Position numbers and translations under genes: made by a program. Positions 23,405 to 40,160 of a DNA stretch of 64,000 nt are shown here, in pieces. How positions within the stretch are numbered: position 1 is the stretch's first letter; each line of letters opens with the position of its first letter. The notes beneath the pieces were generated by a model. The model ran no database searches. It was not told the DNA's origin and worked only from the letters and a program-made list of their open reading frames with translations. The stretch lies in IMG/VR virus record IMGVR_UViG_3300027917_001949, positions 32,001 to 96,000 of that record. One strand, 5' to 3'. Source of the DNA: a virus.

Positions 23405-23475
23405 GCGTCCATAGTGTTAATATAGCATGTAACGCTTCCAACGTTACGGTGTGGGTTTGAATCCCGCTGGACGCT
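23405..23475 (+). tRNA. tRNA-Gly(TCC), no encoded CCA
   Basis: Acceptor gcgtcca/tggacgc; taacg-ct TCC aa-cgtta. Confidence 0.8.
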
Positions 23476-23480
23476 CTCAT

Positions 23481-23585
23481 GTAGGGCAAAGTGGTAAGTA
23501 AGGTAGTCGTATTCTAGAGAACGATACCCACGAGGTTGTTGTATAGGTAGCTCCTATTCAAAGAGGTTCGAACCCTCTCCCTACT
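23481..23585 (+). ncRNA. tRNA-like RNA (acceptor + T arm, non-canonical interior)
   Basis: gtaggg/ccctac; agagg-ttcgaac-cctct; two internal hairpins. Confidence 0.5.
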
Positions 23586-23586
23586 C

Positions 23587-23808
23587 ATGAAAGTTATAGA
23601 TTATAAGTTAATATGTCGAAAGTGTGGGAAACAGATGGGTGCATTAAGCATGGCATATATCGGTGTACCACACAATACCGGTGTCAAAGCATGTACCTGT
23701 ATTGAGTGTCTGCCAAAATCTCTGGATGAAGCTGAAGCTAATGGTTATGATGAGAAGATAATCAAAGAGTTCAGAGAGTGGATTGCTGCGGGTAGGACAA
23801 ACGGTTAA
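23587..23808 (+). CDS. Small Zn-finger protein
   Basis: CRKC..CIEC; ATG abuts tRNA-like RNA; stop lies inside next tRNA. Confidence 0.55.
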   Translation: MKVIDYKLICRKCGKQMGALSMAYIGVPHNTGVKACTCIECLPKSLDEAEANGYDEKIIKEFREWIAAGRTNG

Positions 23809-23859
23809 GTCGCAACCTTCATAAGGTTAGAGGATAGGGTTCAACTCCCTAACCCGCTA
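23787..23859 (+). tRNA. tRNA-Met/Ile2(CAT), no encoded CCA
   Basis: gcgggt/acccgc; aacc-tt CAT aa-ggtt; T arm taggg-ttcaact-cccta. Confidence 0.75.
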
Positions 23860-24414
23860 ATGGGATTATTTGATTCATTACCAAACGGTAGTCAGGTAAA
23901 ACTTTGGGGATGTAACATGAAAACTTTCGAAGTAGGAGATGCAGTCCCCGATTTCGGTCTGCCAATATACATAATTATTCTCCGTGAAGGTGGGTTTGTG
24001 TCAGTCGAAGACGGTAAGATTATGGAGATACGTGAAGACGGGTTCAGGTATTTCCCAGAAGACTTTATGGGTGTACCGTGTTTTGACAAGTGGGGTAAAC
24101 GTCTCGATACCTACACCGAGATGGACGGGATATTCGGTTTTGACGAGTACTTTGACGAGCATGTCAAGAGCTTTGTGTCAAAAGACCGTATAGACCCGTG
24201 GAGAGGGAGAGTTCCGAAGCAGTTCCCGTTTCCGTTCCCTATTCCAACCACGTCTGATGGGGTGTTTGCGAAGTGTCCCAAATGTAACCGTATAAAGAGT
24301 TTGCGGGTATGTTATGGCTGTCAGGAAATTATGTGTGAGAACTGCTTAACGGAACATCAAATCGCATGTTTAAGAAAGGATGAAGATGAAATATTGGACA
24401 TACGTAGTGATTGA
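23860..24414 (+). CDS. Hypothetical protein with C-terminal Zn finger
   Basis: MGLFD start directly after tRNA; CPKC..CYGC..CENC. Confidence 0.6.
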   Translation: MGLFDSLPNGSQVKLWGCNMKTFEVGDAVPDFGLPIYIIILREGGFVSVEDGKIMEIREDGFRYFPEDFMGVPCFDKWGKRLDTYTEMDGIFGFDEYFDEHVKSFVSKDRIDPWRGRVPKQFPFPFPIPTTSDGVFAKCPKCNRIKSLRVCYGCQEIMCENCLTEHQIACLRKDEDEILDIRSD

Positions 24415-24820
24415 AGGTCACTGCTTTGGTGAGGAAGATGAGAATGGTCACAACCCATGTGGTGTTGATGTACCGTCTCCACGTTGTTTAGGTAATGGTA
24501 AGTCAGGAATGTGTCCCCATTTTGCCTGGACTCCTGAGACTGAACGTGAAGCTGCTTTTTTTGTACCGATTAAACTTATTTTGAAAGACAAATTTATAGG
24601 TCTCTGTCATCACATATGGGATAAGATTGAGTGGTATGCGTGGGGTCAGCTTTGGTTTAATCGTCGTAAGGTACGGGAATTCTTTGACAATATCGAGGTT
24701 GTAGATGACACTAATCCTTCGGTTCAGAGATGGTTAAAACAACAGGACAAGTCACAGACACAATTTGAAAAGTGGTTACCTAAAGTAAAGAAGGACTGGG
24801 ATGCCGATATACGTATATAG
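24380..24820 (+). CDS. Hypothetical protein
   Basis: Coupled ORF. Confidence 0.55.
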   Translation: MKMKYWTYVVIEGHCFGEEDENGHNPCGVDVPSPRCLGNGKSGMCPHFAWTPETEREAAFFVPIKLILKDKFIGLCHHIWDKIEWYAWGQLWFNRRKVREFFDNIEVVDDTNPSVQRWLKQQDKSQTQFEKWLPKVKKDWDADIRI

Positions 24821-25073
24821 ATGCGATGAGTGTGATACAGAGTTTGAGGAACGTCAGTCGTTTGATGATGAACCTCTCACAGAATGCCAAGAGTGTAGTG
24901 GTCCGATATATCGGGTAATATTTGCTACTCCTGTTCATTATAAGGGGGCAGGATTTGCGACCACTGAAGCACGTGGTATTACAGGGCGAAGAAGAAAGCC
25001 CAACATAAAGGTAGGTAGTGTGCATAACTTACCACCAGAAGAGAGGGAGAGAGCACTTGACCACTTCGACTAA
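24801..25073 (+). CDS. FmdB-family zinc ribbon protein
   Basis: MPIYVYRCDEC..CQEC..YKGAGF. Confidence 0.85.
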   Translation: MPIYVYRCDECDTEFEERQSFDDEPLTECQECSGPIYRVIFATPVHYKGAGFATTEARGITGRRRKPNIKVGSVHNLPPEERERALDHFD

Positions 25074-26019
25074 AGATGAATTACGAGCGTTACTATCAGA
25101 AGCGCAGAAACCGTATTTAGAGAGACATAAAGAACGTTTAGATAAAATTAAACCAGTATGGGATGAGTATCAAAGTGTTGTACCGGATGTGAATAATCTA
25201 CAACCATATATTCAGATAGCAGATGGTAACAAGGAATTACTTGACTTGCTGTTCTATGGACGAATGACTATATCAAGTTTCCCGTTCAGTGGGGCGGTTG
25301 GTAGAAGGATTCATTACTTGATACGGAATAAACCAGATGATTACATACTTGGATTAGTTGTAATAATGTCTGACTTGACTATACCTATACGTGATAAGCA
25401 TATAGGTTGGACAAGAGATAATATGTGGAAGAGCAAGAGGATAAACTATCTAATGAATGTACATCTTGCTATTAGTACACCACCGTTATCACAGTACTTA
25501 ACTGGTAAGTTAACCGCTATATCAGTTGAGAGCAAAGAAATCCAAGACTATTTCCAGGGAAAATATGGACACCCGTTGGCAGCAATGACGTGTACCAGTC
25601 TATTTGGTAAATCGTCAATCTATAATCGACTGAGAGGATACGAGTATTTAGGTTTGACGAAAGGGCATAGCGTTGCTCTTGTTCCGGTTGAGGTCAAGGA
25701 TAAAATGAGAGAAGACTTCAAAAAGGAAAAGGGTAAGCACTCCGAGATATACTATAACGAAGACGGTTCGGTCAAAGAAACGTATGGTGTCGTTAAAGGA
25801 TTTCAAAAACTCCAGAAATACTGGGATATTCAGCAGACGGAAAATCAACGAGGGACATACATTATTCCATTAGCTGAAAATTATAAGGAGTTCTTGTGTT
25901 GCGAGACGGATGAGTTGAAATCGTTTGACCATCCAACCTACGATGAACTTATAGATTATTGGAAGGAAAGATGGCTGAAAGGTCGTTTGGAGAGATTTGG
26001 TTTAAACACGGAGAACTAG
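25057..26019 (+). CDS. DUF4338 (DruA-like) protein
   Basis: GRRIHYLI..ILG..RDKHIGW..GKL..TSLFGKSSIYNRL..LGLTKG. Confidence 0.65.
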   Translation: MTTSTKDELRALLSEAQKPYLERHKERLDKIKPVWDEYQSVVPDVNNLQPYIQIADGNKELLDLLFYGRMTISSFPFSGAVGRRIHYLIRNKPDDYILGLVVIMSDLTIPIRDKHIGWTRDNMWKSKRINYLMNVHLAISTPPLSQYLTGKLTAISVESKEIQDYFQGKYGHPLAAMTCTSLFGKSSIYNRLRGYEYLGLTKGHSVALVPVEVKDKMREDFKKEKGKHSEIYYNEDGSVKETYGVVKGFQKLQKYWDIQQTENQRGTYIIPLAENYKEFLCCETDELKSFDHPTYDELIDYWKERWLKGRLERFGLNTEN

Positions 26020-26051
26020 GTTATTACTTTTGACAATTTGAAGTAACTTCC

Positions 26052-26183
26052 TTGGGGAGTCCCGAACCAGAGTACATAACTTCATGTCCACGGGAAGGAA
26101 TGTGTTCTCCGTATAGGTGTGGATTTTACGATTTTTGCGATTCGTGTGAACGTAAATTTCACTGTGCAACACATAGAAAGTAA
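26052..26183 (+). CDS. Small Cys-rich ORF with variant CxxCxxKFxC motif (absent from ORF track)
   Basis: Hand translation ...CSPYRCGFYDFCDSCERKFHCATHRK*; start uncertain. Confidence 0.45.
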   Translation: MGSPEPEYITSCPREGMCSPYRCGFYDFCDSCERKFHCATHRK

Positions 26184-26188
26184 GGGAG

Positions 26189-26617
26189 ATGACTATAATA
26201 GGAACAATATTAGCTCTTGTTCTAGCATTTGCACTGGTAGCTTTTCTAGCCTGTGGTTGGGTACGGGAAGTGAAACGCAACAAAGTTTTAGAGCATCAGC
26301 ACGAGGTAGCTATAAAAGAGAATAGAGCGGATGCAGTAAAACGCAGTCGTTCAGTCATTGAGGGACAAGTATTTGAACAGTTAATTGCACACTTTCCAGA
26401 GTGGAAGTTTACTCCGAGTGAAGCTAGGTTTCTTGGGTCACCTATCGATTACTTAGTGTTTGACGGTATGTCAACAGGTAACCCTGAGAAAGTAGTCTTT
26501 GTTGAGGTAAAGACTGGGACGAGTAAAACTACACCTATCCAAAACAAAATAAAGAAGCTGATTCAAGCAGGAAAGGTTGAATGGGAAACCATTGAATTAT
26601 CAAATGGCAAGCGTTAG
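26189..26617 (+). CDS. Membrane-anchored Holliday junction resolvase-like endonuclease
   Basis: N-terminal TM; SRSVIEGQVFEQ..RFLGSPIDYLVFDG..FVEVKTG. Confidence 0.8.
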   Translation: MTIIGTILALVLAFALVAFLACGWVREVKRNKVLEHQHEVAIKENRADAVKRSRSVIEGQVFEQLIAHFPEWKFTPSEARFLGSPIDYLVFDGMSTGNPEKVVFVEVKTGTSKTTPIQNKIKKLIQAGKVEWETIELSNGKR

Positions 26618-26906
26618 ATTAAATAAAGCAGAAGAAAAGATGCGGCAATATGGGCAACACAGGGAAGCGTTTGAGTCCATGTTAAATAGGTTCAATCGTT
26701 TAATTCAGCAGTCTGGTATCTATAGGGATTATAAAAAGTGTGAATCATATGAGAAACCTTCTGATAAGCGACGTCGAAAGAAGCGTGAAGCAGAGGCGAG
26801 GAAACGGAGGGAAAATAGAAGTGCCGTACATAGAAAAGGGCAGAAGAGAAATTCTAGACAACGCAATAAACAATCTGATTCAACACATTCGTCACGACCC
26901 AATTGA
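26604..26906 (+). CDS. rpsU: Ribosomal protein bS21 homolog
   Basis: EAFESMLNRFNR..SGI..YEKPSDKRRRKKREA. Confidence 0.8.
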   Translation: MASVRLNKAEEKMRQYGQHREAFESMLNRFNRLIQQSGIYRDYKKCESYEKPSDKRRRKKREAEARKRRENRSAVHRKGQKRNSRQRNKQSDSTHSSRPN

Positions 26907-27084
26907 TGGCGAGCTTAACTATATGATAACTCGAATCATCGATGCCGCTCACGGTGGGGGTGGCTATGCTAGGTTTAACCGAGCGATGGGGGTGTTGGAT
27001 TGTGTGGCGAGAGAGTTTTACCGGAGACGTGTCGTTCCGTATGAGAACGTCAAAATAGAGGAGAATGGTGATGTATATAATTGA
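26821..27084 (+). CDS. Conserved phage hypothetical protein
   Basis: MPYI..GELNYMIT..GVLDCVAREFYRR..PYE..KI..NGDVY. Confidence 0.7.
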   Translation: MPYIEKGRREILDNAINNLIQHIRHDPIDGELNYMITRIIDAAHGGGGYARFNRAMGVLDCVAREFYRRRVVPYENVKIEENGDVYN

Positions 27085-28978: not shown

Positions 28979-29007
28979 TTGACTTCGGGTGTTTTGTATG
29001 TTATAAT
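28979..29007 (+). promoter_or_regulatory. Sigma70-type promoter heading the main tRNA array
   Basis: TTGACT-17-TATAAT with TG; AT-rich upstream element. Confidence 0.8.
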
Positions 29008-29108: not shown

Positions 29109-29183
29109 GGGGACGTAGCTCAAAGGTTGAGCATCGGTCTGATATACCGAAGGTTGTAGGTTCAAGTCCTACCGTCCCTACCA
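29109..29183 (+). tRNA. tRNA-Ile(GAT)
   Basis: tcggt-ct GAT at-accga; CCA encoded. Confidence 0.9.
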
Positions 29184-29202
29184 AAAAGGTGGGGATTTTT
29201 AT

Positions 29203-29289: not shown

Positions 29290-29291
29290 AT

Positions 29292-29365
29292 AGAGGTGTA
29301 GCTAACAGGGAAGCAAAGGTGTTACATACCTTGATATGCAGGTTCAAATCCTGTCACCTCTACCA
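29292..29365 (+). tRNA. tRNA-Val(TAC)
   Basis: aaggt-gt TAC at-acctt; CCA. Confidence 0.85.
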
Positions 29366-29367: not shown

Positions 29368-29820
29368 ATGTATAATGTAGGTGATGTTGTATATACGACT
29401 CATGATTTAAGGTCTGGAGTGAAAGAGTTTACTCCTGGCATTATCATCGATAGGTATAAGAATACGATTGACGTAGCCTTTCATGAGTGTGTCGTATCTT
29501 ACTGTATCGCCGGTAACTTTAAGAAATGTGATAAAGATTGTACTAATTGTCCAGCTAGGTTTAAATGCTTTACTAGAGATTTAGACAGAGTACCACATCC
29601 AAGTATGGTCACATACATTAAATTAGTCGCAAGGTATCACAGCGCATGTTCGAAATGTGGTAAGCATCTCACAACTGGAAAAGAGATTTGGTGGTCTCCT
29701 GTGGTTAAGGGAGTATACTGTATGGATTGCGGTGTCCCTGAATTCGGTTTGAGAGACCTTGAGGAGATACCTGATTCTGAACAAGTTGATTATTCGAAAG
29801 CGTATCGGGTTAAAAAATAA
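29368..29820 (+). CDS. Hypothetical protein with CxxCxxRFxC motif and Zn finger
   Basis: CDKDCTNCPARFKCFT. Confidence 0.65.
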   Translation: MYNVGDVVYTTHDLRSGVKEFTPGIIIDRYKNTIDVAFHECVVSYCIAGNFKKCDKDCTNCPARFKCFTRDLDRVPHPSMVTYIKLVARYHSACSKCGKHLTTGKEIWWSPVVKGVYCMDCGVPEFGLRDLEEIPDSEQVDYSKAYRVKK

Positions 29821-30184: not shown

Positions 30185-30213
30185 TTGACAAATGATTGAA
30201 TTTGTGGTATAAT
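30185..30213 (+). promoter_or_regulatory. Sigma70-type promoter
   Basis: TTGACA-17-TATAAT with TG. Confidence 0.8.
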
Positions 30214-30678: not shown

Positions 30679-30780
30679 GCAGGGGATAGTTTAACGGTAA
30701 AATAGCTGTAAAGTTGAAAGAGTTGACTTTATTATCCTAGATAAGGAGTAGCTGTCGGTTCGAGTCCGACTTCCCTGCCA
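30679..30780 (+). ncRNA. tRNA-like RNA with anticodon arm replaced by a branched domain
   Basis: gcagggga/ttccctgc; D arm; gtcgg-ttcgagt-ccgac; agctg/tagct stem enclosing two hairpins. Confidence 0.6.
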
Positions 30781-31018: not shown

Positions 31019-31092
31019 GGGGCTATAGTCTAATGGCAGGACACTACCCCCTCAAGGTAGCATTGTCGGTTCGAATCCGTCTAGCCCTACCA
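31019..31092 (+). tRNA. tRNA-Glu(CTC), C33
   Basis: ctacc-cc CTC aa-ggtag; CCA. Confidence 0.85.
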
Positions 31093-31430
31093 TGAAAAAA
31101 GTAGAAACTTTTACGGCACGAATATACTTAGGACTCAAGGAAGGATATAATGGTCGTGTTCGTGGGTTTGATGAGGTTAGAAAGTGTCTGGAAGAGTATG
31201 TGAAGGTTAATCCCTTCTGCTTTACTCTTGAGCATACTATCTTTATCCACACGGATGGCACAGAACCTGGTGCAGTGATTGGGATTATTAACTATCCACG
31301 TTTCCCCAGAACTAGACCAGAGCTAAAGAAGATAGCTTTAAAAGTGGCAGAAGACCTGCGTGTGTTGTTCGTGCAAAACAGAGTATCTGTAGTGTTTACA
31401 GATGAAACGGTAATGCTTGGTGACGAGTAG
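31092..31430 (+). CDS. Conserved phage hypothetical protein
   Basis: IYLGLKEGY..EPG..IINYPRFP..QNRVSV; ATG shares the A of the tRNA CCA. Confidence 0.7.
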   Translation: MKKVETFTARIYLGLKEGYNGRVRGFDEVRKCLEEYVKVNPFCFTLEHTIFIHTDGTEPGAVIGIINYPRFPRTRPELKKIALKVAEDLRVLFVQNRVSVVFTDETVMLGDE

Positions 31431-31673
31431 ATGCCGAACACTCGCTACTTGAAACTAATTTGTGTATCCTGTCACAAGCGTAAGAAGGATTGTACATGTC
31501 ACTCTCATTACGCAAAGTATCATGGTGCAAAATATGGGTATACGTGGTGTGTTGATGTTGGTGTTGGCGCATATTGTGATGAATGCGTAAATAGGTTTTA
31601 TTGTTTTACTCATCGAGGATGGTTTGGGACAGATTTACCAGACTATAAATCGTATTACGGAGTATTGAATTAG
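31431..31673 (+). CDS. Small protein with CxxCxxRFxC motif
   Basis: CDECVNRFYCFT. Confidence 0.6.
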   Translation: MPNTRYLKLICVSCHKRKKDCTCHSHYAKYHGAKYGYTWCVDVGVGAYCDECVNRFYCFTHRGWFGTDLPDYKSYYGVLN

Positions 31674-31768
31674 GGAGCGTAGCACAATTTGGCAGTGCAG
31701 CAGTCTTATAAGCTGTTTAGGGTCTGATACACCCGAGGTTACAGGTTCGAGTCCTGTCGCTCCTACCA
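31673..31768 (+). tRNA. tRNA with TAT (Ile) anticodon and a 24-nt variable region
   Basis: gggagcg/cgctcct; gcagt-ct TAT aa-gctgt; gggt/accc variable stem; A73-CCA. Confidence 0.75.
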
Positions 31769-31831: not shown

Positions 31832-31909
31832 CCCCCTGTAGCTCAATTGGATTTAGAGCACGACGCTACGAACGTCGGTTAGTTGCGGGTTCGAGTCCTG
31901 TCAGGGGGT
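31832..31909 (+). tRNA. tRNA-Arg(ACG), no CCA
   Basis: cgacg-ct ACG aa-cgtcg. Confidence 0.85.
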
Positions 31910-31911: not shown

Positions 31912-32064
31912 ATGATTAAGAATTGGTGTAGAGGATACAGAGAGTATTCGAAAGAGATACCAATGTGTAAGTTCTACGGAACAACTGAACATCCAGATTT
32001 TAAGCCAACATGTTCGAAGAAATTGAAAGCAGGGGTTCACTGCCATGTTAAACCCGATAAGTGA
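31912..32064 (+). CDS. Small Cys-containing protein (50 aa, absent from ORF track)
   Basis: MIKNWCRGY...HCHVKPDK*; starts 2 nt after tRNA. Confidence 0.5.
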   Translation: MIKNWCRGYREYSKEIPMCKFYGTTEHPDFKPTCSKKLKAGVHCHVKPDK

Positions 32065-32154: not shown

Positions 32155-32376
32155 ATGAATACTCAATTAACCGGAGTTCTGATTGAGCACACCAGTCACA
32201 ATAACAACATTGACGAGGTTATTGCGGCAATGAAGGGTGTGCGACTTGATGAGTATCTTGGTTACGTTGCACCAAATTATGTGATAACATTTCGAATGGT
32301 TTTGTTTCTTTGTAAACATGCTGGTACTAACTGTGATGACTGTGAACTACGTTTCAAATGTTGGACATTAAAATAA
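32155..32376 (+). CDS. Small protein with C-terminal CxxCxxRFxC motif
   Basis: CKHAGTNCDDCELRFKCWT. Confidence 0.65.
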   Translation: MNTQLTGVLIEHTSHNNNIDEVIAAMKGVRLDEYLGYVAPNYVITFRMVLFLCKHAGTNCDDCELRFKCWTLK

Positions 32377-32379: not shown

Positions 32380-32408
32380 TTGACAAAGTCGAAAAAATAT
32401 GATATAAT
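32380..32408 (+). promoter_or_regulatory. Sigma70-type promoter
   Basis: TTGACA-17-TATAAT with TG. Confidence 0.8.
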
Positions 32409-32774: not shown

Positions 32775-32894
32775 TACTAATATACTGAGGGAATCTGAAA
32801 AAGATGAGACTGGAAGTTGATGGTTACTATCCCAGTCATGGGTGTCCGAGAAGCGGCAATGGTGGAGCGTCCATAGTAGGTGTATTAGTACTAC

Positions 32895-32970
32895 GGTGCA
32901 TTGGTGTTAATGGTGAGCATACTACCCTGTCAAGGTTGAGGGAGGGGTTCGTGTCCCCTATGCACCGCCA
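32895..32970 (+). tRNA. tRNA-Asp(GTC)
   Basis: acc-ct GTC aa-ggt; G73-CCA. Confidence 0.85.
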
Positions 32971-33246
32971 ATGAATAAGATTGTCCGTTATCGGATTCTT
33001 TTCAGTGATGAGTTTAAAGAAGGTGTGATACAATGTAGCACTACGCTATGCGGTGACTGTCCGGTCAGGTTTAAATGCTGGACAAGTCGTGTGGTCAGTG
33101 ACTACTTTTCTATCGCTTTCGAGGTAACACCGTATGAGCTTTTCTCGCTACAGTGGTTTAAGTTTGGAGAAAAGTTTAACGGAATGAAATATGAAACGGA
33201 CACTAAAAAACGATTGGTAGAGTGGCGACGTAGCCAAGAGGTTTAA
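32971..33246 (+). CDS. Small protein with CxxCxxRFxC motif
   Basis: CSTTLCGDCPVRFKCWT. Confidence 0.65.
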   Translation: MNKIVRYRILFSDEFKEGVIQCSTTLCGDCPVRFKCWTSRVVSDYFSIAFEVTPYELFSLQWFKFGEKFNGMKYETDTKKRLVEWRRSQEV

Positions 33247-33297
33247 GGCGGCTGTCTGCAAAACAGCTTTTCATGGGTTCGAATCCCATCGTCGCCT
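33224..33297 (+). tRNA. tRNA-Cys(GCA), no CCA
   Basis: gctgt-ct GCA aa-acagc; U73. Confidence 0.9.
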
Positions 33298-33299: not shown

Positions 33300-33647
33300 A
33301 TGAGTCCTAACGAATTATGTTTGGAGATTGCGAAAGCAATCCACGTACCATCAAGGTATATAGAGTTTGATACGAGTAAATATATCTATAAGTGTACGTG
33401 CGGTCTCTGTGACGAAGCTTGGACACATGAGATAGTGCGTGAAGCATTTGTTGCAGAAGATGAGGTTGAACAAAGACGGCTTCAAGGTTTGATGTGGTAT
33501 TACCACCGAACTAGAATTGGGGGTAACATATTCATTTTAAGTAATATGATGTGTTATGAACTTGGTCGCAGGTCTGGTTTACTGCAAGCATGTAACGACT
33601 GTACTCATAGGTACAAATGTATCACTAATAGTTTTATTCTGGTGTAG
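33300..33647 (+). CDS. Protein with C-terminal CxxCxxRYxC motif
   Basis: CNDCTHRYKCIT. Confidence 0.65.
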   Translation: MSPNELCLEIAKAIHVPSRYIEFDTSKYIYKCTCGLCDEAWTHEIVREAFVAEDEVEQRRLQGLMWYYHRTRIGGNIFILSNMMCYELGRRSGLLQACNDCTHRYKCITNSFILV

Positions 33648-33712
33648 TACAAAGGTAGTGCACTCGGCTGTTAACCGAGGATATAGTGGTTCGAGTCCAC
33701 TCACCAGAGCCA
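33638..33712 (+). tRNA. tRNA-Asn(GTT)
   Basis: ctcgg-ct GTT aa-ccgag; G73-CCA. Confidence 0.9.
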
Positions 33713-33994
33713 ATGTTAATATTTGAAGTAGTACGAGATAGAGAGTTAAAGGTAGCATACGTTAACAGACTTGATTGCGGTGCTCGTGATTGTAATCAAT
33801 GTATCGGACGCTTCATTTGTTTTACCCAAAAAACTGGGTATTTCATGGGTGAGAAAGGTCTTATAATGGAGGAAGAACAGGCTAGACGATTAAGACACCA
33901 TCCATCTATCGAAGTAAACATGTTTTACGATGGGCAGAGACACGCAGTGGGTAAGAAATGGGACGGGGATAACTATGTCCCAGAGTTTGAATAA
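33713..33994 (+). CDS. Small protein with CxxCxxRFxC motif
   Basis: CGARDCNQCIGRFICFT; exactly fills the gap between two tRNAs. Confidence 0.65.
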   Translation: MLIFEVVRDRELKVAYVNRLDCGARDCNQCIGRFICFTQKTGYFMGEKGLIMEEEQARRLRHHPSIEVNMFYDGQRHAVGKKWDGDNYVPEFE

Positions 33995-34072
33995 GGCAGC
34001 ATGGACTAATCTGGTTATGTCACCACTCTTTCAAAGTGGAGATTACGGGTTCAAATCCCGTTGCTGCTACCA
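33995..34072 (+). tRNA. tRNA-Glu(TTC)
   Basis: ccact-ct TTC aa-agtgg; CCA. Confidence 0.9.
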
Positions 34073-34081: not shown

Positions 34082-34157
34082 AGCGGGGTGGAGCAGTGGT
34101 TAGCTCGACTGGCTCATAACCAGTAGGTCGAGGGTTCAAATCCCTCCCCCGCCACCA
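34082..34157 (+). tRNA. tRNA-fMet(CAT), initiator-like
   Basis: A1:C72 mismatch; gcggggtggagcag; actgg-ct CAT aa-ccagt. Confidence 0.85.
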
Positions 34158-34532
34158 ATGGAATATTGCACTTATAATAGGATATGTGCTAATAAGATAA
34201 GTTGTTTGGAGTGGACCGATGTCGGTACTTGTGATTATTATGGTCACTACCGACGGGTAACACCACCAGAGAAAACGGTTTATCACATGCGGAGTCAGGA
34301 TTGTCAACACCTTACTCGTACCATCACTCCAGAGCATCAGAAGTTATGCGAAGATTGTGACCATAGATTTTACTGTTGGACTTCTGAATACTGGGGTAAT
34401 GATATGTATGAGCAACATAAGCATTATATCTATGTTAAGAGTACTGCAATAGCACGAGCACGTAATATCGCTCGTCAAGAGAAGGAAGCACGGTTGCTTA
34501 GTATTGAAACATATGGATTGACAAGTGCGTAA
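34158..34532 (+). CDS. Protein with CxxCxxRFxC motif
   Basis: CEDCDHRFYCWT. Confidence 0.65.
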   Translation: MEYCTYNRICANKISCLEWTDVGTCDYYGHYRRVTPPEKTVYHMRSQDCQHLTRTITPEHQKLCEDCDHRFYCWTSEYWGNDMYEQHKHYIYVKSTAIARARNIARQEKEARLLSIETYGLTSA

Positions 34533-34827: not shown

Positions 34828-34833
34828 TTTTAT

Positions 34834-34905
34834 TTCCCCGTAGTCTAATTGGTATGACTGCTGGCTCTGAACCAGTCAATTCAGGTTCGAATCCTGACGG
34901 GGGAA
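34834..34905 (+). tRNA. tRNA-Gln(CTG), no CCA
   Basis: gctgg-ct CTG aa-ccagt. Confidence 0.85.
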
Positions 34906-34908
34906 CAG

Positions 34909-35181
34909 ATGAAGCGAGTATTTAAGCTAAATAAAAGCGGTAATAATACTTACATATGTATGGGTGGTGGATGTGATAGATGTTGTATGAGATTTAAGTG
35001 CTTTTCTGTTAGTAAGTATGAGTATTTTGTCGTTGACTGGCATCTGATACACACCAATGAAAGCCCGACAAAATACTTGGAACGGCAGACTCATAGCAGA
35101 GTGTACGTGAAAGGAAGTAAACGATATAACAAAGCATTGTTAGACATGGGAATATCACCATTGTTGTTTACAACCTATTAG
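34909..35181 (+). CDS. Small protein with CxxCxxRFxC motif
   Basis: CMGGGCDRCCMRFKCFS. Confidence 0.65.
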   Translation: MKRVFKLNKSGNNTYICMGGGCDRCCMRFKCFSVSKYEYFVVDWHLIHTNESPTKYLERQTHSRVYVKGSKRYNKALLDMGISPLLFTTY

Positions 35182-35255
35182 GCGTTGTAACCCAACCAGG
35201 CAGAGGTAACTGGCTAAGAACCAGTGAAGTGCAGGTTCGAATCCTGTCAACGCCA
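35181..35255 (+). tRNA. tRNA-Leu(AAG), A34, short variable loop, no CCA
   Basis: ggcgttg/caacgcc; actgg-ct AAG aa-ccagt. Confidence 0.85.
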
Positions 35256-35256
35256 C

Positions 35257-35487
35257 ATGAGGAATCCAGATAGAATACCTTTAATATTGGAAACCATATA
35301 TGAGATATGGATAGAAAACCCAGATTTAAGGTTGATGCAACTTTTAGGTAATTGTTTTTCTCCGGCAGATAATTACCACCGTGAGGATGACGTATTACTT
35401 GAACGATTGCGACAAGTATATGGTAAGTCGAGTGAACGCTCTACGAGAGAGGAAAGTCCGAACACCGCAGAGCAGGATGCAGGGTAA
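35257..35487 (+). CDS. DUF1040/YihD-like small protein
   Basis: MRNPDRIPLIL..W..NPDLRLMQLL; 3' end overlaps the RNase P RNA. Confidence 0.65.
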   Translation: MRNPDRIPLILETIYEIWIENPDLRLMQLLGNCFSPADNYHREDDVLLERLRQVYGKSSERSTREESPNTAEQDAG

Positions 35488-35820
35488 CACCCTGGCAGAG
35501 TAATCTGACGACTAGTGCAACAGAGACGAGTCAGTAGTTCGAGGTATGGGGTATTGGTAGCTCATATCCCTGTGGAATAGTATGGTTGTTTCTCTATATA
35601 GACACGTCATCGTACTGTGGAGGATGGCTACTTTCAGTAGGACTTACTGGGTGAAACGGGTAAACTCCATCCGGTGCAACCCCAAGCAGAAAGCAAATCG
35701 GCGATTCCGTTTAAGACCTGCTCGGTCAAGCTTTCGGGTCGGGGGCAAGGAGTTTAATGGTAACATTAAACCAAGATAAATGTTCACATAGTACAGAATT
35801 CGGCTTATAGATTTACCATA
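35420..35820 (+). ncRNA. rnpB: RNase P RNA
   Basis: GAGGAAAGTCC, AGTGCAACAGA, GTGAAAC, GGTAAACTCC..GCAA, ACAGAATTCGGCTTA in the correct order; P1 atatggtaagtc/gatttaccatat. Confidence 0.9.
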
Positions 35821-35824
35821 TTAA

Positions 35825-35900
35825 GTGTCCGAAGTGTAACGGTTGTGCACGGGAGATTGTGGCTCTCTCTGAGTGGGTTCGATTCCCACCGGACACTCCA
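35825..35900 (+). tRNA. tRNA-His(GTG) with A(-1)/U73
   Basis: gtgtccg/cggacac; ggaga-tt GTG gc-tctct; U73-CCA. Confidence 0.85.
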
Positions 35901-36124
35901 TGTACCTTATCGCAAATAACTATCGATATTCCTACAGTAGAGAATATCCATACTTTAACGGTGACCTTGTCGTATGTTGGCAAGATATACCATGTGAGGA
36001 ATGTAAAGATAGGTTTTATTGCTTTACCCATGTAACTCACGTAAACAGTCCTTATTTTAGTTTAAGTGATGAACTTAGAAGGAGACCGAGTAGTGCAGAC
36101 TTATCTCAGAAGCAAGATACGTAA
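35900..36124 (+). CDS. Small protein with CxxCxxRFxC motif
   Basis: CWQDIPCEECKDRFYCFT; ATG shares the A of CCA. Confidence 0.65.
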   Translation: MYLIANNYRYSYSREYPYFNGDLVVCWQDIPCEECKDRFYCFTHVTHVNSPYFSLSDELRRRPSSADLSQKQDT

Positions 36125-36440
36125 TTTAGTAGTTACTGATGTTAACGTCAGTTACGATGGAAGTATTAGTTTAGACCCAGAATTAATGGAAATGGCTGGC
36201 ATTTCCCCGTTCGAACAAGTTCATGTGCTTAATGTTACGAATGGTGAACGGTTCATAACATATGCAATTAAGGGTGAAAAGGATGAGGTTTGTGTGAATG
36301 GTGCGGCAGCTCATTTGGTGGAGTTTAACGATGTATTAATGGTTCTTACCTATGAGATTGTTGACCATGGTGTGGTAAGACATTACGCTAATCACCCAAC
36401 TATAGTCGATGCCGAAGCACGGCACAAGTATTTGATATAA
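36093..36440 (+). CDS. panD: Aspartate 1-decarboxylase
   Basis: LRSKI..VT..YDGSISLD..EQVHVLNVTNGERFITYAI..VNGAAAHLV; RBS aaggag before GTG. Confidence 0.9.
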   Translation: MQTYLRSKIRNLVVTDVNVSYDGSISLDPELMEMAGISPFEQVHVLNVTNGERFITYAIKGEKDEVCVNGAAAHLVEFNDVLMVLTYEIVDHGVVRHYANHPTIVDAEARHKYLI

Positions 36441-36442
36441 TT

Positions 36443-36518
36443 GCGGATGAAATTCATTTGGTTGAATGCTGCGTTGCCAACGCAGATGTAGCGGGTTCGA
36501 ATCCCGCCATCCGCTCCA
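36443..36518 (+). tRNA. tRNA-Gly(GCC)
   Basis: ctgcg-tt GCC aa-cgcag; U73-CCA. Confidence 0.9.
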
Positions 36519-36519
36519 C

Positions 36520-36593
36520 GCTAGAGTGATGCAACTGGCAGACATGTCCGTCTCAAAAACGGGATTTTGAGGGTTCGAATCCCTCCTCTAGCA
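36520..36593 (+). tRNA. tRNA-Leu(CAA), short variable loop, no CCA
   Basis: tccgt-ct CAA aa-acggg. Confidence 0.85.
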
Positions 36594-36594
36594 C

Positions 36595-36687
36595 ATGAAA
36601 ACAAATCGATTAGATTTCGTTTTATTGATATTTTTTATAGCTATGTTTGTAGCATTGGCATTTTTGGGAGTGTCGGTTAATGGATAA
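36595..36687 (+). CDS. 30-aa single-pass membrane peptide (absent from ORF track)
   Basis: MKTNRLDFVLLIFFIAMFVALAFLGVSVNG*. Confidence 0.45.
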   Translation: MKTNRLDFVLLIFFIAMFVALAFLGVSVNG

Positions 36688-36740
36688 ACCAACGGATTCC
36701 AAACCCGTGACTGAGAGTTCGAATCTTTCCACTCCCGCCA
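36666..36740 (+). tRNA. tRNA-Trp(CCA)
   Basis: acgga-tt CCA aa-cccgt; G73-CCA. Confidence 0.85.
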
Positions 36741-36748
36741 AATCTATC

Positions 36749-36940
36749 GTGGTAGATACTGGTATACTTGGAATGGTAGGGAACATTGGCAGTTTCACAG
36801 TTAGATGTTTCGGTGACAACTGTGAGGAATGTTTTTTGCGGTTTAAATGCTATACTACTCGTTCTGATGAGATACATATTCATATGGATGAGTGGTTTAA
36901 AGTGAAACCGAAAATCGTTTATACACGAGTAGAGGTATGA
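36749..36940 (+). CDS. Small protein with CxxCxxRFxC motif
   Basis: CFGDNCEECFLRFKCYT; GTG start after tRNA-Trp. Confidence 0.6.
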   Translation: MVDTGILGMVGNIGSFTVRCFGDNCEECFLRFKCYTTRSDEIHIHMDEWFKVKPKIVYTRVEV

Positions 36941-37245
36941 TGCGTGGTAAAAGATTACGTGATGCGACTATAAAAGCTGAACATACTTTCGAGAAATATC
37001 AGGGCTATAATCCACGGGATGAGAAGCTATTAACGGCTCGTTGGATACCTTGGACAGAGGACGAAATAGCACGTACCGTAGGAATTTTTAGAAAAACTAA
37101 AGTACCATGTTCATGTGTAATGTGTGGTAATCCAAGAAGATACTTTGGAGAATTGACATTCGGAGAGATAAGACAACATTTAGATGCTGATGCACAATGT
37201 GAAGAAGTAGATTGGTATCATAAAAAAGTAAGATGGTCGGTGTAG
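36937..37245 (+). CDS. Conserved phage hypothetical protein
   Basis: TKVPCSCVMCGNPRRYFGELT. Confidence 0.65.
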   Translation: MMRGKRLRDATIKAEHTFEKYQGYNPRDEKLLTARWIPWTEDEIARTVGIFRKTKVPCSCVMCGNPRRYFGELTFGEIRQHLDADAQCEEVDWYHKKVRWSV

Positions 37246-37312
37246 CCCAACTGGCAGAGGTGATAGGCTTAAACCCTATTCAGTGTGAGTTCGAATCTCA
37301 CCACCGACACCA
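37236..37312 (+). tRNA. tRNA-Leu(TAA), short variable loop
   Basis: atagg-ct TAA ac-cctat; CCA. Confidence 0.85.
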
Positions 37313-37328
37313 AGCCATATACTGGGTA

Positions 37329-37357
37329 TTGACAAATTGCAGTAACTGTGGTATAAT
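37329..37357 (+). promoter_or_regulatory. Sigma70-type promoter
   Basis: TTGACA-17-TATAAT with TG. Confidence 0.8.
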
Positions 37358-37507
37358 GGTATTGTAACCTGATGAGGGAGATGCCTAACTAGCCGTAGTG
37401 AAGGGCAGATGCGGGAAAATCTAACCGGTGGTTCTAGGGGATTAGCACCCATGCTAGATAGTTAAAAGTCCATCGTGGAAGGTAGACACCCTGACTCAGG
37501 TTCGCAA

Positions 37508-37584
37508 GCTGACTTAGCTCATTCTGGTAGAGCGACAGGTTGAAGCCCTGTGCGTAGGTGGTTCGATTCCGCCAGTCAGCACCA
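37508..37584 (+). tRNA. tRNA-Phe(GAA)
   Basis: acagg-tt GAA gc-cctgt; CCA. Confidence 0.9.
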
Positions 37585-37745
37585 TGGAAATTAATTGTTA
37601 TGAATGTCCCTTAACTCATGCGTGTAGTGTAAGAGCACGTAAGGAAGTGGGACGAGTGTGGGATGGTATAATTGAATCTTGGGAACTTAATGATTGTCCA
37701 CTCTACAGATTACTTCAAATAATGGAAGCAATTAAGTATCTTTAA
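37584..37745 (+). CDS. 53-aa Cys-containing protein (absent from ORF track)
   Basis: MEINCYECPLTHAC..DCPLYR; fills the gap between tRNA-Phe and tRNA-Tyr. Confidence 0.55.
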   Translation: MEINCYECPLTHACSVRARKEVGRVWDGIIESWELNDCPLYRLLQIMEAIKYL

Positions 37746-37746
37746 T

Positions 37747-37833
37747 GGCGTAGCGGCAACGTGGGAGAGTTGCCCTGGTCTGTAAAACCAGTGTCCTTGG
37801 GCTTAGTAGGTTCGAATCCTATCTGCGCCACCA
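37747..37833 (+). tRNA. tRNA-Tyr(GTA)
   Basis: ctggt-ct GTA aa-accag; variable arm; CCA. Confidence 0.9.
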
Positions 37834-37834
37834 A

Positions 37835-38074
37835 ATGTTAAAAGAATTACGTCAAGCTAAAAAATTATACTGTTATCATTGTGATGCATTGTATGAACCA
37901 GTATCATTTTTAACGTGTCCGTCATGCGGTACACCACTTGTTACGTGTTGGTGGGGATTGATTTACGGAATGAATAAGGACGAAATTCATAAATTATGTC
38001 CTGATTGTAAGAATAGATTCTGGTGTTGGACACAGCGACCAGAACTACCCACAATGAGTGGGACATACATGTAA
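37835..38074 (+). CDS. Zn-ribbon protein with CxxCxxRFxC motif
   Basis: CPDCKNRFWCWT. Confidence 0.65.
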   Translation: MLKELRQAKKLYCYHCDALYEPVSFLTCPSCGTPLVTCWWGLIYGMNKDEIHKLCPDCKNRFWCWTQRPELPTMSGTYM

Positions 38075-38077
38075 AAT

Positions 38078-38151
38078 GGGGGTTTAGTTCAGTGGGAGAA
38101 CACTTCCCTTGCAAGGAAGGAAGACGAGTTCGAGTCTCGTAACCTCCACCA
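38078..38151 (+). tRNA. tRNA-Ala(TGC)
   Basis: cttcc-ct TGC aa-ggaag; G3:U70; CCA. Confidence 0.9.
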
Positions 38152-38153
38152 AG

Positions 38154-38648
38154 ATGATTAAACCAAAACTTGGTGAAATTAGAACTGGTAAAGAACTTGG
38201 ATATATATCAAGGAACAAGCATATTGGTCATGCTTGTGAAATATGCGGCAAATTACGTTGGGTTCGTTTGATAGGTGGTAAACCACAGCGAACAAAATGC
38301 GAAGCACATAACGGTGGTAACTATGTAGATAGCAGTGGTAATGCTGCTGGTAATTTTAAACATGGTTTTCGTAATACTAGATTGTATCGAGTATGGAAAG
38401 GGATGAAACAGCGGTGTTATTTACCAACATTTGATTCGTATAAAACGTATGGTGCTCGTGGTATTAAAGTTTGTGACGAGTGGCATGAATTTATTCCATT
38501 CAAAGATTGGGCATTATCACACGGATATTCAGATGACCTATGTATAGACAGAATTGATAATGATGGGAATTATGAGCCGGATAACTGTCAATTTCTTACT
38601 CGAAGTGAAAATAGTCGTAAACAAAAATTAGATAGACTCGGTGTGTAG
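38154..38648 (+). CDS. HNH-type homing endonuclease-like protein
   Basis: TRLYRVWKGMKQRC..YGARGIKVCDEW..IDRIDNDGNYEPDNC. Confidence 0.8.
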   Translation: MIKPKLGEIRTGKELGYISRNKHIGHACEICGKLRWVRLIGGKPQRTKCEAHNGGNYVDSSGNAAGNFKHGFRNTRLYRVWKGMKQRCYLPTFDSYKTYGARGIKVCDEWHEFIPFKDWALSHGYSDDLCIDRIDNDGNYEPDNCQFLTRSENSRKQKLDRLGV

Positions 38649-38715
38649 CACAGCTTGGTAGTGCGCCTGATTTGGGGTCAGGAAGTCGTAGGTTCAAATC
38701 CTATCACACCGACCA
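38639..38715 (+). tRNA. tRNA-Pro(TGG), copy 1
   Basis: cctga-tt TGG gg-tcagg; CCA. Confidence 0.9.
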
Positions 38716-38811
38716 ATACATATCATCTTGGAAGGATATTGTATTCATTTGGAGTATAAGCTTCAAGATTATATTTAGATACGATGGACGATACCAAGAT
38801 ATTGTCCTCGG

Positions 38812-38888
38812 CAGGGTGTACGTCAGCGGACAAGACTACCTGTTTTGGATACAGGAGGACGGTGGTTCGAATCCACCCACCCTGACCA
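38812..38888 (+). tRNA. tRNA-Pro(TGG), copy 2 (A37)
   Basis: cctgt-tt TGG at-acagg; CCA. Confidence 0.85.
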
Positions 38889-38898
38889 GAGGTGAGGA

Positions 38899-39117
38899 AT
38901 GATAAAGCATAGTATTAGTAACGAGATTATTCCAGAAGAGCAGTGGGGTGACATTGGTGGTTATTATACTCTCACTAATGATGAATTAGAAGAGTGGAGA
39001 CATAATCAAACACGTGAACAACGTAAACTTGCGTACTGGGTAAAAACAGTCGCACGTGGAAAACCGCTACTTACACTTGGTACTAATCCCGTTTTAAATG
39101 CCACTGAAGCTCATTAG
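38899..39117 (+). CDS. Hypothetical protein
   Basis: RBS gaggtgagga; stop lies inside tRNA-Thr. Confidence 0.55.
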   Translation: MIKHSISNEIIPEEQWGDIGGYYTLTNDELEEWRHNQTREQRKLAYWVKTVARGKPLLTLGTNPVLNATEAH

Positions 39118-39172
39118 GATGAGCGGTGGTTTTGTAAACCACAGGTAACGGGTTCGAATCCTGTCAGTGGCT
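39100..39172 (+). tRNA. tRNA-Thr(TGT), no CCA
   Basis: gtggt-tt TGT aa-accac. Confidence 0.9.
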
Positions 39173-39249
39173 CGGGGAGAAAGAGTTATGAAGCATGAGC
39201 GATGCTGTAGCTCATTTTGGCATCATAACTAACAGCCGTTCCCCAACAT

Positions 39250-39321
39250 GCTACCGAAGCTCAAAGGTTGAGCATCCGCTTCGTAAGCGGGAGATTGTGA
39301 GTTCGAGTCTCACCGGTAGCT
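39250..39321 (+). tRNA. tRNA-Thr(CGT), no CCA
   Basis: tccgc-tt CGT aa-gcggg. Confidence 0.9.
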
Positions 39322-39322
39322 C

Positions 39323-39769
39323 ATGAAGATACATGAAATAAAAGATAACTATAGTGGTTGGGATGATGTGGCGACCGTCGGTGTCTTTTATTATGATGGG
39401 ACATTCGATAATCTGAAAGACAAGACTCTTGTTATAACTACATTCGGTGAGTTATCGAGTCTCCGATATTATGGATTACCATGTAAAGCAATCTTACGAA
39501 TACGGCACGCACCGAAGCAACCATTTGAAACAACCTTTATTTTAGAAAGTGATAAGGTGGGTAAGGAAATGGCAAGAGACCAAGTTAAATTCGAAACGGA
39601 TTTAGAAACTTTGAAGTCGTTAGCTGACATAGCTGTTGACATCGAAAAGATACAACATGGTGATGTCGAGAACGTAACAGAAGCTGGTTTTGTTAGGGGT
39701 GAAGTTTACGTCAAGTGGACTCGTGGTGATACGGTAGAAATAGCATTACCCGCAAAACCACATGGCTAA
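39323..39769 (+). CDS. Hypothetical protein
   Basis: 148-aa ORF starting 1 nt after tRNA. Confidence 0.65.
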   Translation: MKIHEIKDNYSGWDDVATVGVFYYDGTFDNLKDKTLVITTFGELSSLRYYGLPCKAILRIRHAPKQPFETTFILESDKVGKEMARDQVKFETDLETLKSLADIAVDIEKIQHGDVENVTEAGFVRGEVYVKWTRGDTVEIALPAKPHG

Positions 39770-39780
39770 ATTTTTATAAT

Positions 39781-39866
39781 GGAAGGTGTCCGGCTGGACG
39801 AGGAAGCTGTCCTGAAAACAGTGGGGCTGTAAAGTCTTAGGGGTTCGAGTCCTCTACCTTCCGCCA
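39781..39866 (+). tRNA. tRNA-Ser(TGA), C33
   Basis: gctgt-cc TGA aa-acagt; long variable arm; G73-CCA. Confidence 0.9.
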
Positions 39867-40082
39867 ATGAGATACGTTGTTACAAGACACGGTAATGTAC
39901 TTGAAGCATTCTGGTGTTATTACACTAAATGTGAGACATGTCCTAGTAGATTTAAGTGTCTCACGAGTGCTATCGCTATAGTTGATGACTGCATAAATTT
40001 AACAGGTAGCGAAGTGCGAAAGAAAATAAATGATATTATAGAGAAGCACGGTTTACATGTTGAACATCTTGCAGAAATGTAA
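39867..40082 (+). CDS. Small protein with CxxCxxRFxC motif
   Basis: CYYTKCETCPSRFKCLT; exactly fills the gap between two tRNAs. Confidence 0.65.
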   Translation: MRYVVTRHGNVLEAFWCYYTKCETCPSRFKCLTSAIAIVDDCINLTGSEVRKKINDIIEKHGLHVEHLAEM

Positions 40083-40160
40083 TGCCGAGTAGTCTAAAAC
40101 GGTTTGGACGACTGGCTTTGACCCAGTAGGCTGAAGGTTCGACTCCTTCCTCGGCAACCA
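40083..40160 (+). tRNA. tRNA-Gln(TTG)
   Basis: actgg-ct TTG ac-ccagt; U1-A72; CCA. Confidence 0.9.

Follow-up and report, generated by a model that had tools for sequence, protein, structure and literature searches.

Open reading frames abutting tRNA 3' ends in a phage tRNA array suggest release of nearly leaderless mRNAs by tRNA excision

Layout of the tRNA array

We analysed a tRNA array of ~17 kb in a 64,000-nucleotide stretch of viral DNA (the window), which comprises bases 32001–96000 of the 152,753-bp phage contig IMGVR_UViG_3300027917_001949 of IMG/VR (99% complete by CheckV). ARAGORN detected 32 tRNAs between 23405 and 39322, all on the plus strand, and Rfam added two, at 30680–30778 and 40083–40157, giving a total of 34. 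Two extra tRNA-like RNAs, both missed by ARAGORN, were located by folding at 23481–23585 and at 39781–39863, the latter followed by CCA. A class A RNase P RNA (196 bits with Rfam) also lies within the array. The terminal CCA is encoded in 23 of the 34 tRNAs; an initial annotation of the window had correctly noticed that some lack it, and their number is 11 rather than the ten it gave.

Short open reading frames (ORFs) are packed between these RNA genes. We describe their spacing by d, the number of nucleotides (nt) between the discriminator base N73 and the ATG; the placement of N73 by ARAGORN and Rfam differs by one base for two tRNA-Met genes, whose d values hold to within 1. All 19 ATGs that the initial annotation had assigned to tRNA 3' ends lie at d=0–5 from the discriminator, two of them behind tRNA-like elements. 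The sharing of one A between CCA and ATG at 31092, 35900 and 37584 was confirmed, as was the exact fit of two ORFs (33713–33994 and 39867–40082) into the gap before the next tRNA. In six more cases the ORF 3' end lies within 1–14 nt of the next tRNA 5' end or overlaps it by 1 nt. An initiator-like tRNA had also been reported, and the tRNA-Met at 34082 indeed has a mismatch at 1:72. CCA is encoded in 11 of the 19 junction tRNAs, leaving 8 junctions that lack it. The junctions are listed below, with ORF lengths in amino acids (aa); the Cys motif is described further on.

23405–23475, plus: tRNA-Gly(UCC); no encoded CCA; followed by ATG-TAG, a dead start
23481–23585, plus: tRNA-like RNA of 105 nt; 6-bp acceptor stem, canonical T arm, long insert; C before ATG
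23587–23808, plus: junction ORF, 73 aa, d=1; stop 22 nt into tRNA-Met
23787–23859, plus: tRNA-Met(CAU); no CCA; discriminator directly abuts ATG
23860–24414, plus: junction ORF, 184 aa, d=0
29292–29365, plus: tRNA-Val(UAC); CCA, then AG, then ATG
29368–29820, plus: junction ORF, 150 aa, d=5; Cys motif
31019–31092, plus: tRNA-Glu(CUC); A of CCA doubles as A of ATG
31092–31430, plus: junction ORF, 112 aa, d=2; phrog_4848
31832–31909, plus: tRNA-Arg(ACG); no CCA; CG before ATG
31912–32064, plus: junction ORF, 50 aa, d=2; weak coding score
32079–32154, plus: tRNA-Arg(UCU); CCA, then ATG; GGAG in paired acceptor strand
32155–32376, plus: junction ORF, 73 aa, d=3; Cys motif
32895–32970, plus: tRNA-Asp; CCA, then ATG
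32971–33246, plus: junction ORF, 91 aa, d=3; Cys motif; stop 23 nt into tRNA-Cys
33224–33297, plus: tRNA-Cys; no CCA; CA before ATG
33300–33647, plus: junction ORF, 115 aa, d=2; Cys motif; stop 10 nt into tRNA-Asn
33638–33712, plus: tRNA-Asn; CCA, then ATG
33713–33994, plus: junction ORF, 93 aa, d=3; Cys motif; fills the gap exactly up to tRNA-Glu(UUC) at 33995
34082–34157, plus: tRNA-Met(CAU), initiator-like; A1/C72 mismatch; CCA, then ATG
34158–34532, plus: junction ORF, 124 aa, d=3; Cys motif
34834–34905, plus: tRNA-Gln(CUG); no CCA; CAG before ATG
34909–35181, plus: junction ORF, 90 aa, d=3; Cys motif
35181–35255, plus: tRNA-Leu(AAG); no CCA; C before ATG
35257–35487, plus: junction ORF, 76 aa, d=1; final 68 nt overlap RNase P RNA
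35420–35823, plus: RNase P RNA, bacterial class A; ends 1 nt before tRNA-His
35825–35900, plus: tRNA-His; A of CCA doubles as A of ATG
35900–36124, plus: junction ORF, 74 aa, d=2; Cys motif
36520–36593, plus: tRNA-Leu(CAA); no CCA; C before ATG
36595–36687, plus: junction ORF, 30 aa, hydrophobic, d=1; stop 22 nt into tRNA-Trp; least certain gene
37508–37584, plus: tRNA-Phe; A of CCA doubles as A of ATG
37584–37745, plus: junction ORF, 53 aa, d=2; ends 1 nt before tRNA-Tyr
37747–37833, plus: tRNA-Tyr; CCA, then A, then ATG
37835–38074, plus: junction ORF, 79 aa, d=4; Cys motif
38078–38151, plus: tRNA-Ala; CCA, then AG, then ATG
38154–38648, plus: junction ORF, 164 aa, d=5; HNH endonuclease (phrog_374); stop 10 nt into tRNA-Pro
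39250–39321, plus: tRNA-Thr(CGU); no CCA; C before ATG; same CATG junction in relatives G001 and G002
39323–39769, plus: junction ORF, 148 aa, d=1; strongest coding score
39781–39866, plus: tRNA-Ser(UGA)-like RNA with CCA; 29 bits with the Rfam tRNA-Sec model, below threshold; ATG directly after
39867–40082, plus: junction ORF, 71 aa, d=3; Cys motif; fills the gap exactly up to the last tRNA
40083–40160, plus: last tRNA of the array, with CCA; 63 bits with Rfam; occupies the position of tRNA-Gln(UUG) in G001

Direct junctions exceed chance in the window and its relatives

We tabulated the distances from tRNA end to ATG, as the initial annotation had suggested, and found direct junctions strongly enriched over chance both in the window and in related genomes. 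In the window, 17 of the 32 ARAGORN tRNAs, besides the two tRNA-like RNAs, have, within 6 nt, an ATG that opens an ORF of 30 codons or more. The expected frequency is 5.4%, the share of plus-strand array positions with an ATG opening such an ORF within the next 7 nt (binomial p=4×10−13).

The phage carries genes for a tape-measure protein, DnaB, a family A DNA polymerase (PolA), RecA and other replication functions. Searches of cultured phages with megablast and tblastn found no close relative, and identity of PolA to that of crAss-like and Pseudanabaena phages is at most ~31%. PolA homologues of 50–70% identity are found on metagenomic contigs of 119–151 kb with the same gene order. Five IMG/VR contigs were reached via the CCA-adding enzyme encoded next to the array (G001–G004 and a near-duplicate, G005; G000 denotes the window's own genome), and in all five the same ordered tRNA array adjoins that enzyme. 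Across the five distinct genomes, 66 of 153 distinct tRNA junctions are direct (d up to 6). The cultured tRNA-rich phages T5, KVP40, Bxz1, S-CRM01, phiCbK and CcrColossus together have 4 in 159, which is the chance level (Fisher p=1×10−19 for the two sets). In T5 none of the 23 tRNAs has a direct junction, and ORFs that closely follow a tRNA sit 14–28 nt downstream of it. This confirms that the arrangement is highly non-random.

The Mycobacterium phage Bxz1 (L029, record 93500–101600) has an ATG-initiated ORF 2–4 nt after the discriminator at two of its 26 tRNAs (Asp and Met), again the chance level. Its host can be cultured and is rich in leaderless mRNAs, which makes this phage a possible test case.

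Junction ORFs behave as genuine genes

All 19 junction ORFs have a positive coding score in their own frame and a negative one in the other two under a codon model. The motif C-x2-C-x2-R-[FY]-x-C-x-[TS] (the Cys motif) occurs in ten of them. Since it precedes any second methionine in ORFs 32971, 33713, 35900 and 39867, the junction ATG must be the start in these four. Alignments of the orthologous ORFs that follow tRNA-Pro, tRNA-Trp and tRNA-Met begin at Met-1, and those of the tRNA-Tyr ORF at residue 2 of the window protein. The pN/pS values of 0.17/0.75 (tRNA-Pro ORF), 0.16/0.51 (tRNA-Trp ORF) and 0.33/0.68 (tRNA-Tyr ORF) indicate that the orthologous junction ORFs are under purifying selection. 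On the strength of the frame scores, the Cys motif and the orthologue alignments with their pN/pS values, we rejected the possibility that the junctions reflect mis-called starts or spurious ORFs. ORF 36595, with 30 aa, is the weakest gene call.

Most of the encoded proteins are unlike known families. At an E-value of 0.001, PHROGs and Pfam gave no match for 15 of the 19, and ORF 39323 has no homologue among 5.8 billion public proteins. The Cys motif is not covered by any Pfam or PHROG family. It recurs at varying positions in otherwise unrelated small proteins, among them those encoded at 31431–31673 and 36773–36940, and the relatives have it in junction ORFs as well, such as the one behind tRNA-Pro in G001 and G002.

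Junction ATGs form a separate class of starts

A Shine-Dalgarno (SD)-like motif stands at the right distance from 66% of the genome's genes, against 15% of random positions. Tight gene–gene junctions keep it by placing it within the upstream gene (44 of 72). At direct tRNA junctions an SD-like motif was found in five of 66, each time inside the paired acceptor strand; in the window, three junction tRNAs, Arg-ACG, Arg-UCU and Gln-CUG, have GGAG or GGGGG in the paired 3' acceptor strand. The claim that junction ATGs have no SD sequence holds across the clade, with 61 of 66 junctions free of any SD-like 4-mer and the exceptions locked in a helix.

Start codon usage differs as well, with ATG, GTG and TTG in a ratio of 64:1:0 at junctions versus about 93:23:11 at SD-led starts. 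Spacers are bimodal: 66 fall at d=1–6 by ARAGORN (0–6 with Rfam ends), a single one at 7–9 and 15 at 10–22, and eight of these last 15 carry an SD motif. ATG-AA is enriched in junction ORFs (42% versus 22%, p=0.003). Leaderless initiation of the E. coli type requires a 5'-proximal AUG, and the AUG preference of the junction starts matches that requirement. The missing SD, the ATG rule and the gap in spacer lengths fit a 5'-end-dependent start.

Junctions persist while genes turn over

The same junction can be retained between genomes. ORF 34909 follows tRNA-Gln(CUG) behind the linker CAG, and its homologues in G001 and G002 adjoin the same tRNA behind CCAAG and CCAAA; the linker sequence drifts yet stays short. 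The G002 orthologue of ORF 37835 likewise abuts tRNA-Tyr (d=2), and the G001 orthologue of tRNA-Gly(UCC), which in the window precedes a dead start, directly precedes a 60-aa ORF. The G004 homologue of ORF 39867 lies away from any tRNA junction. In the window, ORF 23860 starts immediately behind tRNA-Met; its G001 orthologue begins at the same N terminus but is set off from the tRNA by 20 nt that include AAGGAG.

Unrelated genes also abut the same tRNA in different genomes, as after tRNA-His, where the ORFs encode 74, 173, 147 and 66 aa. The arrays of the relatives keep the tRNA order but contain homologues of just four of the 19 window ORFs. Hence the type of junction persists while the genes themselves turn over.

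RNase P RNA is shared by G000, G001 (contig 36402–36823) and G002 (contig 32834–33193), and its position differs in G002. A candidate in G004 (contig 121881–122149) scores 60 bits only, and none was found in G003 or G005. In G001 a tRNA lies 3 nt away on either side of the RNase P RNA, so that tRNA 3' processing would generate the 5' end of this RNA too.

Promoters, terminator and neighbouring genes

From sequence, five consensus promoters and a single strong terminator are predicted for the array, every one of them on the plus strand. Matches are given to TTGACA-17-TATAAT; each promoter has the extended −10 TG.

23350–23378, plus: promoter-like site, 12/12; heads the first tRNA/ORF unit
28979–29007, plus: promoter-like site, 11/12
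30185–30213, plus: promoter-like site, 12/12
32380–32408, plus: promoter-like site, 12/12
37329–37357, plus: promoter-like site, 12/12; no ORF before tRNA-Phe
40170–40200, plus: intrinsic terminator-like hairpin (9 bp, of which 6 GC) and T run; end of the array

None of the promoter-like sites in the array ends ~7 nt upstream of a junction ATG. As promoters are not positioned at these ATGs, a leaderless 5' end could come only from processing. Genome-wide there are 24 near-perfect TTGACA-17/18-TATAAT sites, 18 with the extended −10 TG, which suggests that the phage relies heavily on the host primary sigma factor. The genes right after promoters have leaders of roughly 20–30 nt that bear an SD. 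ORFs 29368, 31092, 34158 and 37584 have only tRNAs or a promoter upstream and no upstream ORF. A further terminator-like hairpin, at 29174–29196, consists of the 3' acceptor strand and CCA of tRNA-Ile(GAU) together with downstream sequence, followed by a T run; here the tRNA fold and the terminator fold are mutually exclusive.

Three genes in or beside the array are listed separately.

26577–26906, plus: bS21 ribosomal protein homologue (context only)
40218–41141, minus: protein of 307 aa; signal peptide; flanked by the array terminator and the CCA-adding enzyme
41468–42826, minus: CCA-adding enzyme with PolyA_pol head, HD and tRNA_NucTran2 domains

The initial annotation had named the RNase P RNA, the CCA-adding enzyme and bS21, and all three identifications hold. 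The CCA-adding enzyme sits just past the array on the opposite strand. The 307-aa protein has no family match and no counterpart in related arrays; we considered it as a hidden nuclease and rejected it on account of its signal peptide and its absence from the relatives.

A PanD-like aspartate decarboxylase gene (36066–36440) sits within the tRNA array, and a peptide deformylase gene lies near it at 47732–48259 on the minus strand. A protein with an IF3 C-terminal domain is encoded beside tRNA-Met on a related contig (L007/L015), not in the window's genome; IF3_C (PF00707) was not found in this 99%-complete sequence. DruA (Druantia) homologues are encoded at 25018–26019 and 46676–47389 (minus strand), one clear (E=6×10−25) and one weak, and the clear one is syntenic in G001 and in a relative from ENA. 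The heavy use of SD sequences, bS21 and the class A RNase P RNA speak against a host among the Bacteroidota, Cyanobacteria, Actinobacteria or Bacilli and allow no finer placement.

Two RNAs of the array are unusual in size. The tRNA-like gene at 30680–30778 (99 nt; 37.7 bits with Rfam, missed by ARAGORN) lies 2 nt and 5 nt from two tRNA-Lys genes, and weak matches to YrlA (Y RNA-like) overlap this area. tRNA-Ile(UAU) has an extra arm in the window (31673–31768) and in L015 (14043–14138), L021 (3655–3750) and L020 (4762–4854). It measures 93–96 nt in G000, G001, G002 and G004 and 74 nt in G003 and G005; since four genomes have the extended form, it is conserved and not an assembly error.

A proposed model for mRNA release by tRNA excision

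We propose that the array would be transcribed from its five strong sigma-70-type promoters as long tRNA/ORF precursors. The endonuclease that matures tRNA 3' ends, either a host enzyme of the RNase Z type or another host nuclease cutting beside the acceptor helix, would cut at or just past the discriminator. As 3' maturation of the tRNAs is needed anyway, such a cut would leave a downstream fragment that starts 0–6 nt before its AUG, and this fragment would be translated by a 5'-end-dependent route that dispenses with SD pairing. RNase Z cleavage leaves a 5'-phosphate. tRNAs that end short of a full CCA (CATG, CCATG, CG-ATG and similar junctions) would be completed by the phage CCA-adding enzyme, and its presence beside the array in every genome fits repair of ends at N73, N73-C and N73-CC. 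RNase P, including enzyme built on the phage-encoded RNase P RNA, would cut the tRNA 5' ends and set the other boundary of each segment. The tRNA-like RNA at 23481–23585 would direct processing as a mimic of the acceptor and T arms. The stable RNAs of the array seem to be released by the same cuts. We put the probability of this mechanism as a whole at roughly 55%. Within it, we infer the cut, the identity of the enzyme, the exact cut site and the translation of the cut form. Likewise, we infer that tRNA maturation may switch these genes on, as the initial annotation had put it.

Several observations weigh against release by tRNA excision. No RNase Z or metallo-beta-lactamase fold (PF12706, PF00753) was found in the 99%-complete phage genome, which extends to the genome what had been reported for the window. 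An encoded CCA blocks RNase Z of the B. subtilis and E. coli types; with CCA in 11 of the 19 junction tRNAs, a simple RNase Z route cleanly fits only eight, barring CCA repair. At the commonest junction, CCATG (22 cases in the clade), a cut after A76 would remove the start codon. Such a transcript would yield both products only if the cut precedes A76 and CCA is then repaired. Six of the 19 ORFs stop 10–68 nt inside the downstream tRNA or RNase P RNA, and their messages would lose the stop codon if RNase P cut there. E. coli-like hosts translate leaderless mRNAs inefficiently. Folding of the first 45 nt is no weaker in junction ORFs than in SD-led genes (p=0.5). Finally, leaderless mRNAs of Actinobacteria also start with GUG (PMC3848588), so that the ATG-only rule is no universal signature. 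The earlier proposal that 3' processing yields leaderless mRNAs thus draws support from the architecture, its conservation, the lack of SD sequences, the ATG starts and the absence of promoters at the ATGs; its RNase Z detail sits poorly with the encoded CCAs and the CCATG junctions.

The main rival is SD-independent internal initiation on the uncut precursor, at an A/U-rich start just after a folded tRNA, with zero spacing as a form of genome economy. A tRNA, unlike upstream coding sequence, cannot host an SD motif, the genome is very compact with many overlapping gene–gene junctions, and the junction ORFs are A-rich after the ATG. N73 and CCA would leave 2–6 unpaired nt before the AUG, and ORFs that stop within the next tRNA need a precursor that is uncut there to terminate normally. 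The proposal is physically awkward, however. The 30S subunit requires ~15 nt of accessible RNA upstream of the AUG, a region that is taken up here by a stable tRNA with its acceptor and T arm. Internal initiation predicts neither the gap in spacers at 7–9 nt nor the ATG-only rule, and such packing is not seen in the six cultured tRNA-rich phages. We consider it unlikely. Ribosomes might instead finish an upstream ORF, unwind the tRNA, scan ~75 nt and restart at the first ATG. The chain of ORF 32971, tRNA-Cys, ORF 33300, tRNA-Asn and ORF 33713, with stops at or inside the tRNA and an ATG right after it, would suit this route. Scanning ~75 nt of structured RNA is inefficient when no SD is at hand, though, and the first ORF of every chain would still need a start of its own. 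As ORFs 29368, 31092, 34158 and 37584 have just tRNAs or a promoter upstream, re-initiation is no general answer; ORF 37584 is unreachable by it, because no ORF lies between the promoter at 37329 and tRNA-Phe. We judge this explanation very improbable.

It is also conceivable that the ORFs are passengers on abundant tRNA transcripts, having lost their SD by deletion and being translated at trace level or not at all, with the tRNAs perhaps serving as recombination anchors that shuffle cassettes. The fast turnover seen in the relatives' arrays, where tRNA order is kept and few of the window ORFs recur, and the lack of family matches for most ORFs speak for this. Purifying selection on the orthologues and the protein motif shared among junction ORFs speak against it. 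A given tRNA, such as tRNA-His, has acquired different abutting genes from one genome to the next, and the spacers are bimodal where a steady decay would be expected. Passenger status appears improbable to a high degree, and we retain tRNA excision as the working model.

Discussion

A close likeness to the array is found in animal mitochondria. Ojala, Montoya and Attardi reportedly described tRNA punctuation of mitochondrial transcripts in 1981. The enzymes responsible are RNase P plus RNase Z/ELAC2, and to our knowledge mitochondrial tRNA genes never encode CCA. Both systems have ORFs and tRNAs on one strand with little or no spacer, starts 0–5 nt after the tRNA 3' end, some ORFs that end exactly at the next tRNA and no SD; long precursors are probable in the phage. 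Unlike mitochondria, the phage host uses SD sequences, and just a 17-kb part of the phage genome is so built. The array has CCA in 23 of its 34 tRNAs and at least five internal promoters. Mitochondrial stops are completed by polyadenylation, whereas six phage stops lie inside the next RNA gene. Processing is established for mitochondria and proposed for the phage. Mitochondrial punctuation is reviewed in PMC4394434 and PMC11112384.

The T5 tRNA region (NC_005859) resembles the array in combining a large one-strand tRNA cluster with small ORFs and an HNH gene, and in its several promoters and additional stable RNAs. It differs at the junctions themselves (0 of 23 direct in T5 versus 17 of 32 here), where the T5 spacers of 14–28 nt leave room for a ribosome-binding site and the array ORFs start at 0–5 nt.

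Bacterial leaderless mRNAs offer a second comparison. Those of lambda cI and Tn1721 tetR are leaderless because transcription starts at the AUG. Like the junction ORFs, leaderless mRNAs have no SD, and AUG is as strict as in the E. coli cases. Unlike messages made by a promoter at the AUG, the junction 5' ends would need processing, and their predicted leaders are mostly 1–5 nt rather than 0. The model in which MazF makes leaderless mRNAs was later disputed. MazF and our proposal share a nuclease cut just 5' of the AUG that is proposed to create a leaderless message. MazF, however, acts as a stress toxin, with cleavage at ACA that yields a 5'-OH, whereas the cut proposed here would be constitutive tRNA maturation leaving a 5'-phosphate. 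Leaderless mRNAs are common in Actinobacteria (PMC3848588), and that paper cites work in which the MazF endonuclease makes them post-transcriptionally in E. coli.

tRNA mimicry provides a third parallel. The t-elements define mRNA ends in plant mitochondria, and tRNA-like elements are processed by tRNase Z in Haloferax. As proposed for the tRNA-like RNA at 23481–23585, a neighbouring RNA acquires its end because an acceptor/T-arm mimic directs RNase P or RNase Z there. The known elements stand singly, in organelles or archaea, and none amounts to a whole phage array made up of functional tRNAs. PMC4946936 mentions the use of t-elements. In full-text searches of the literature we found no phage or bacterial account of mRNAs freed by tRNA excision, the only precedents being mitochondrial, archaeal and MazF-based. 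As far as can be told, the phage layout is unpublished.

More speculatively, the array might run a mitochondria-like programme in an SD-using bacterium. Cleavage would precede A76, the phage enzyme would repair CCA, and the mRNAs would be leaderless with a 5'-phosphate. How fast the tRNAs are processed would then gate the output of ~20 small, early zinc-binding proteins. That output might also be favoured by phage factors for RNA processing and for the ribosome, namely the RNase P RNA, bS21 and peptide deformylase. In this full form we hold the idea to be doubtful.

The clade itself amounts to a natural experiment, in which the same gene follows the same tRNA with a 20-nt SD spacer in one genome and with none in another. 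If the model is true, bacteria would have a second way of making leaderless mRNAs, by processing through tRNA excision, a logic previously thought confined to mitochondria. It would explain why gene callers based on ribosome-binding sites mis-start or miss genes in phage tRNA arrays, and it would offer synthetic biology natural, compact tRNA–ORF modules for processed polycistrons. It would also tie early phage protein expression to tRNA maturation and assign a definite function to the CCA-adding enzymes and RNase P RNAs that phages encode.

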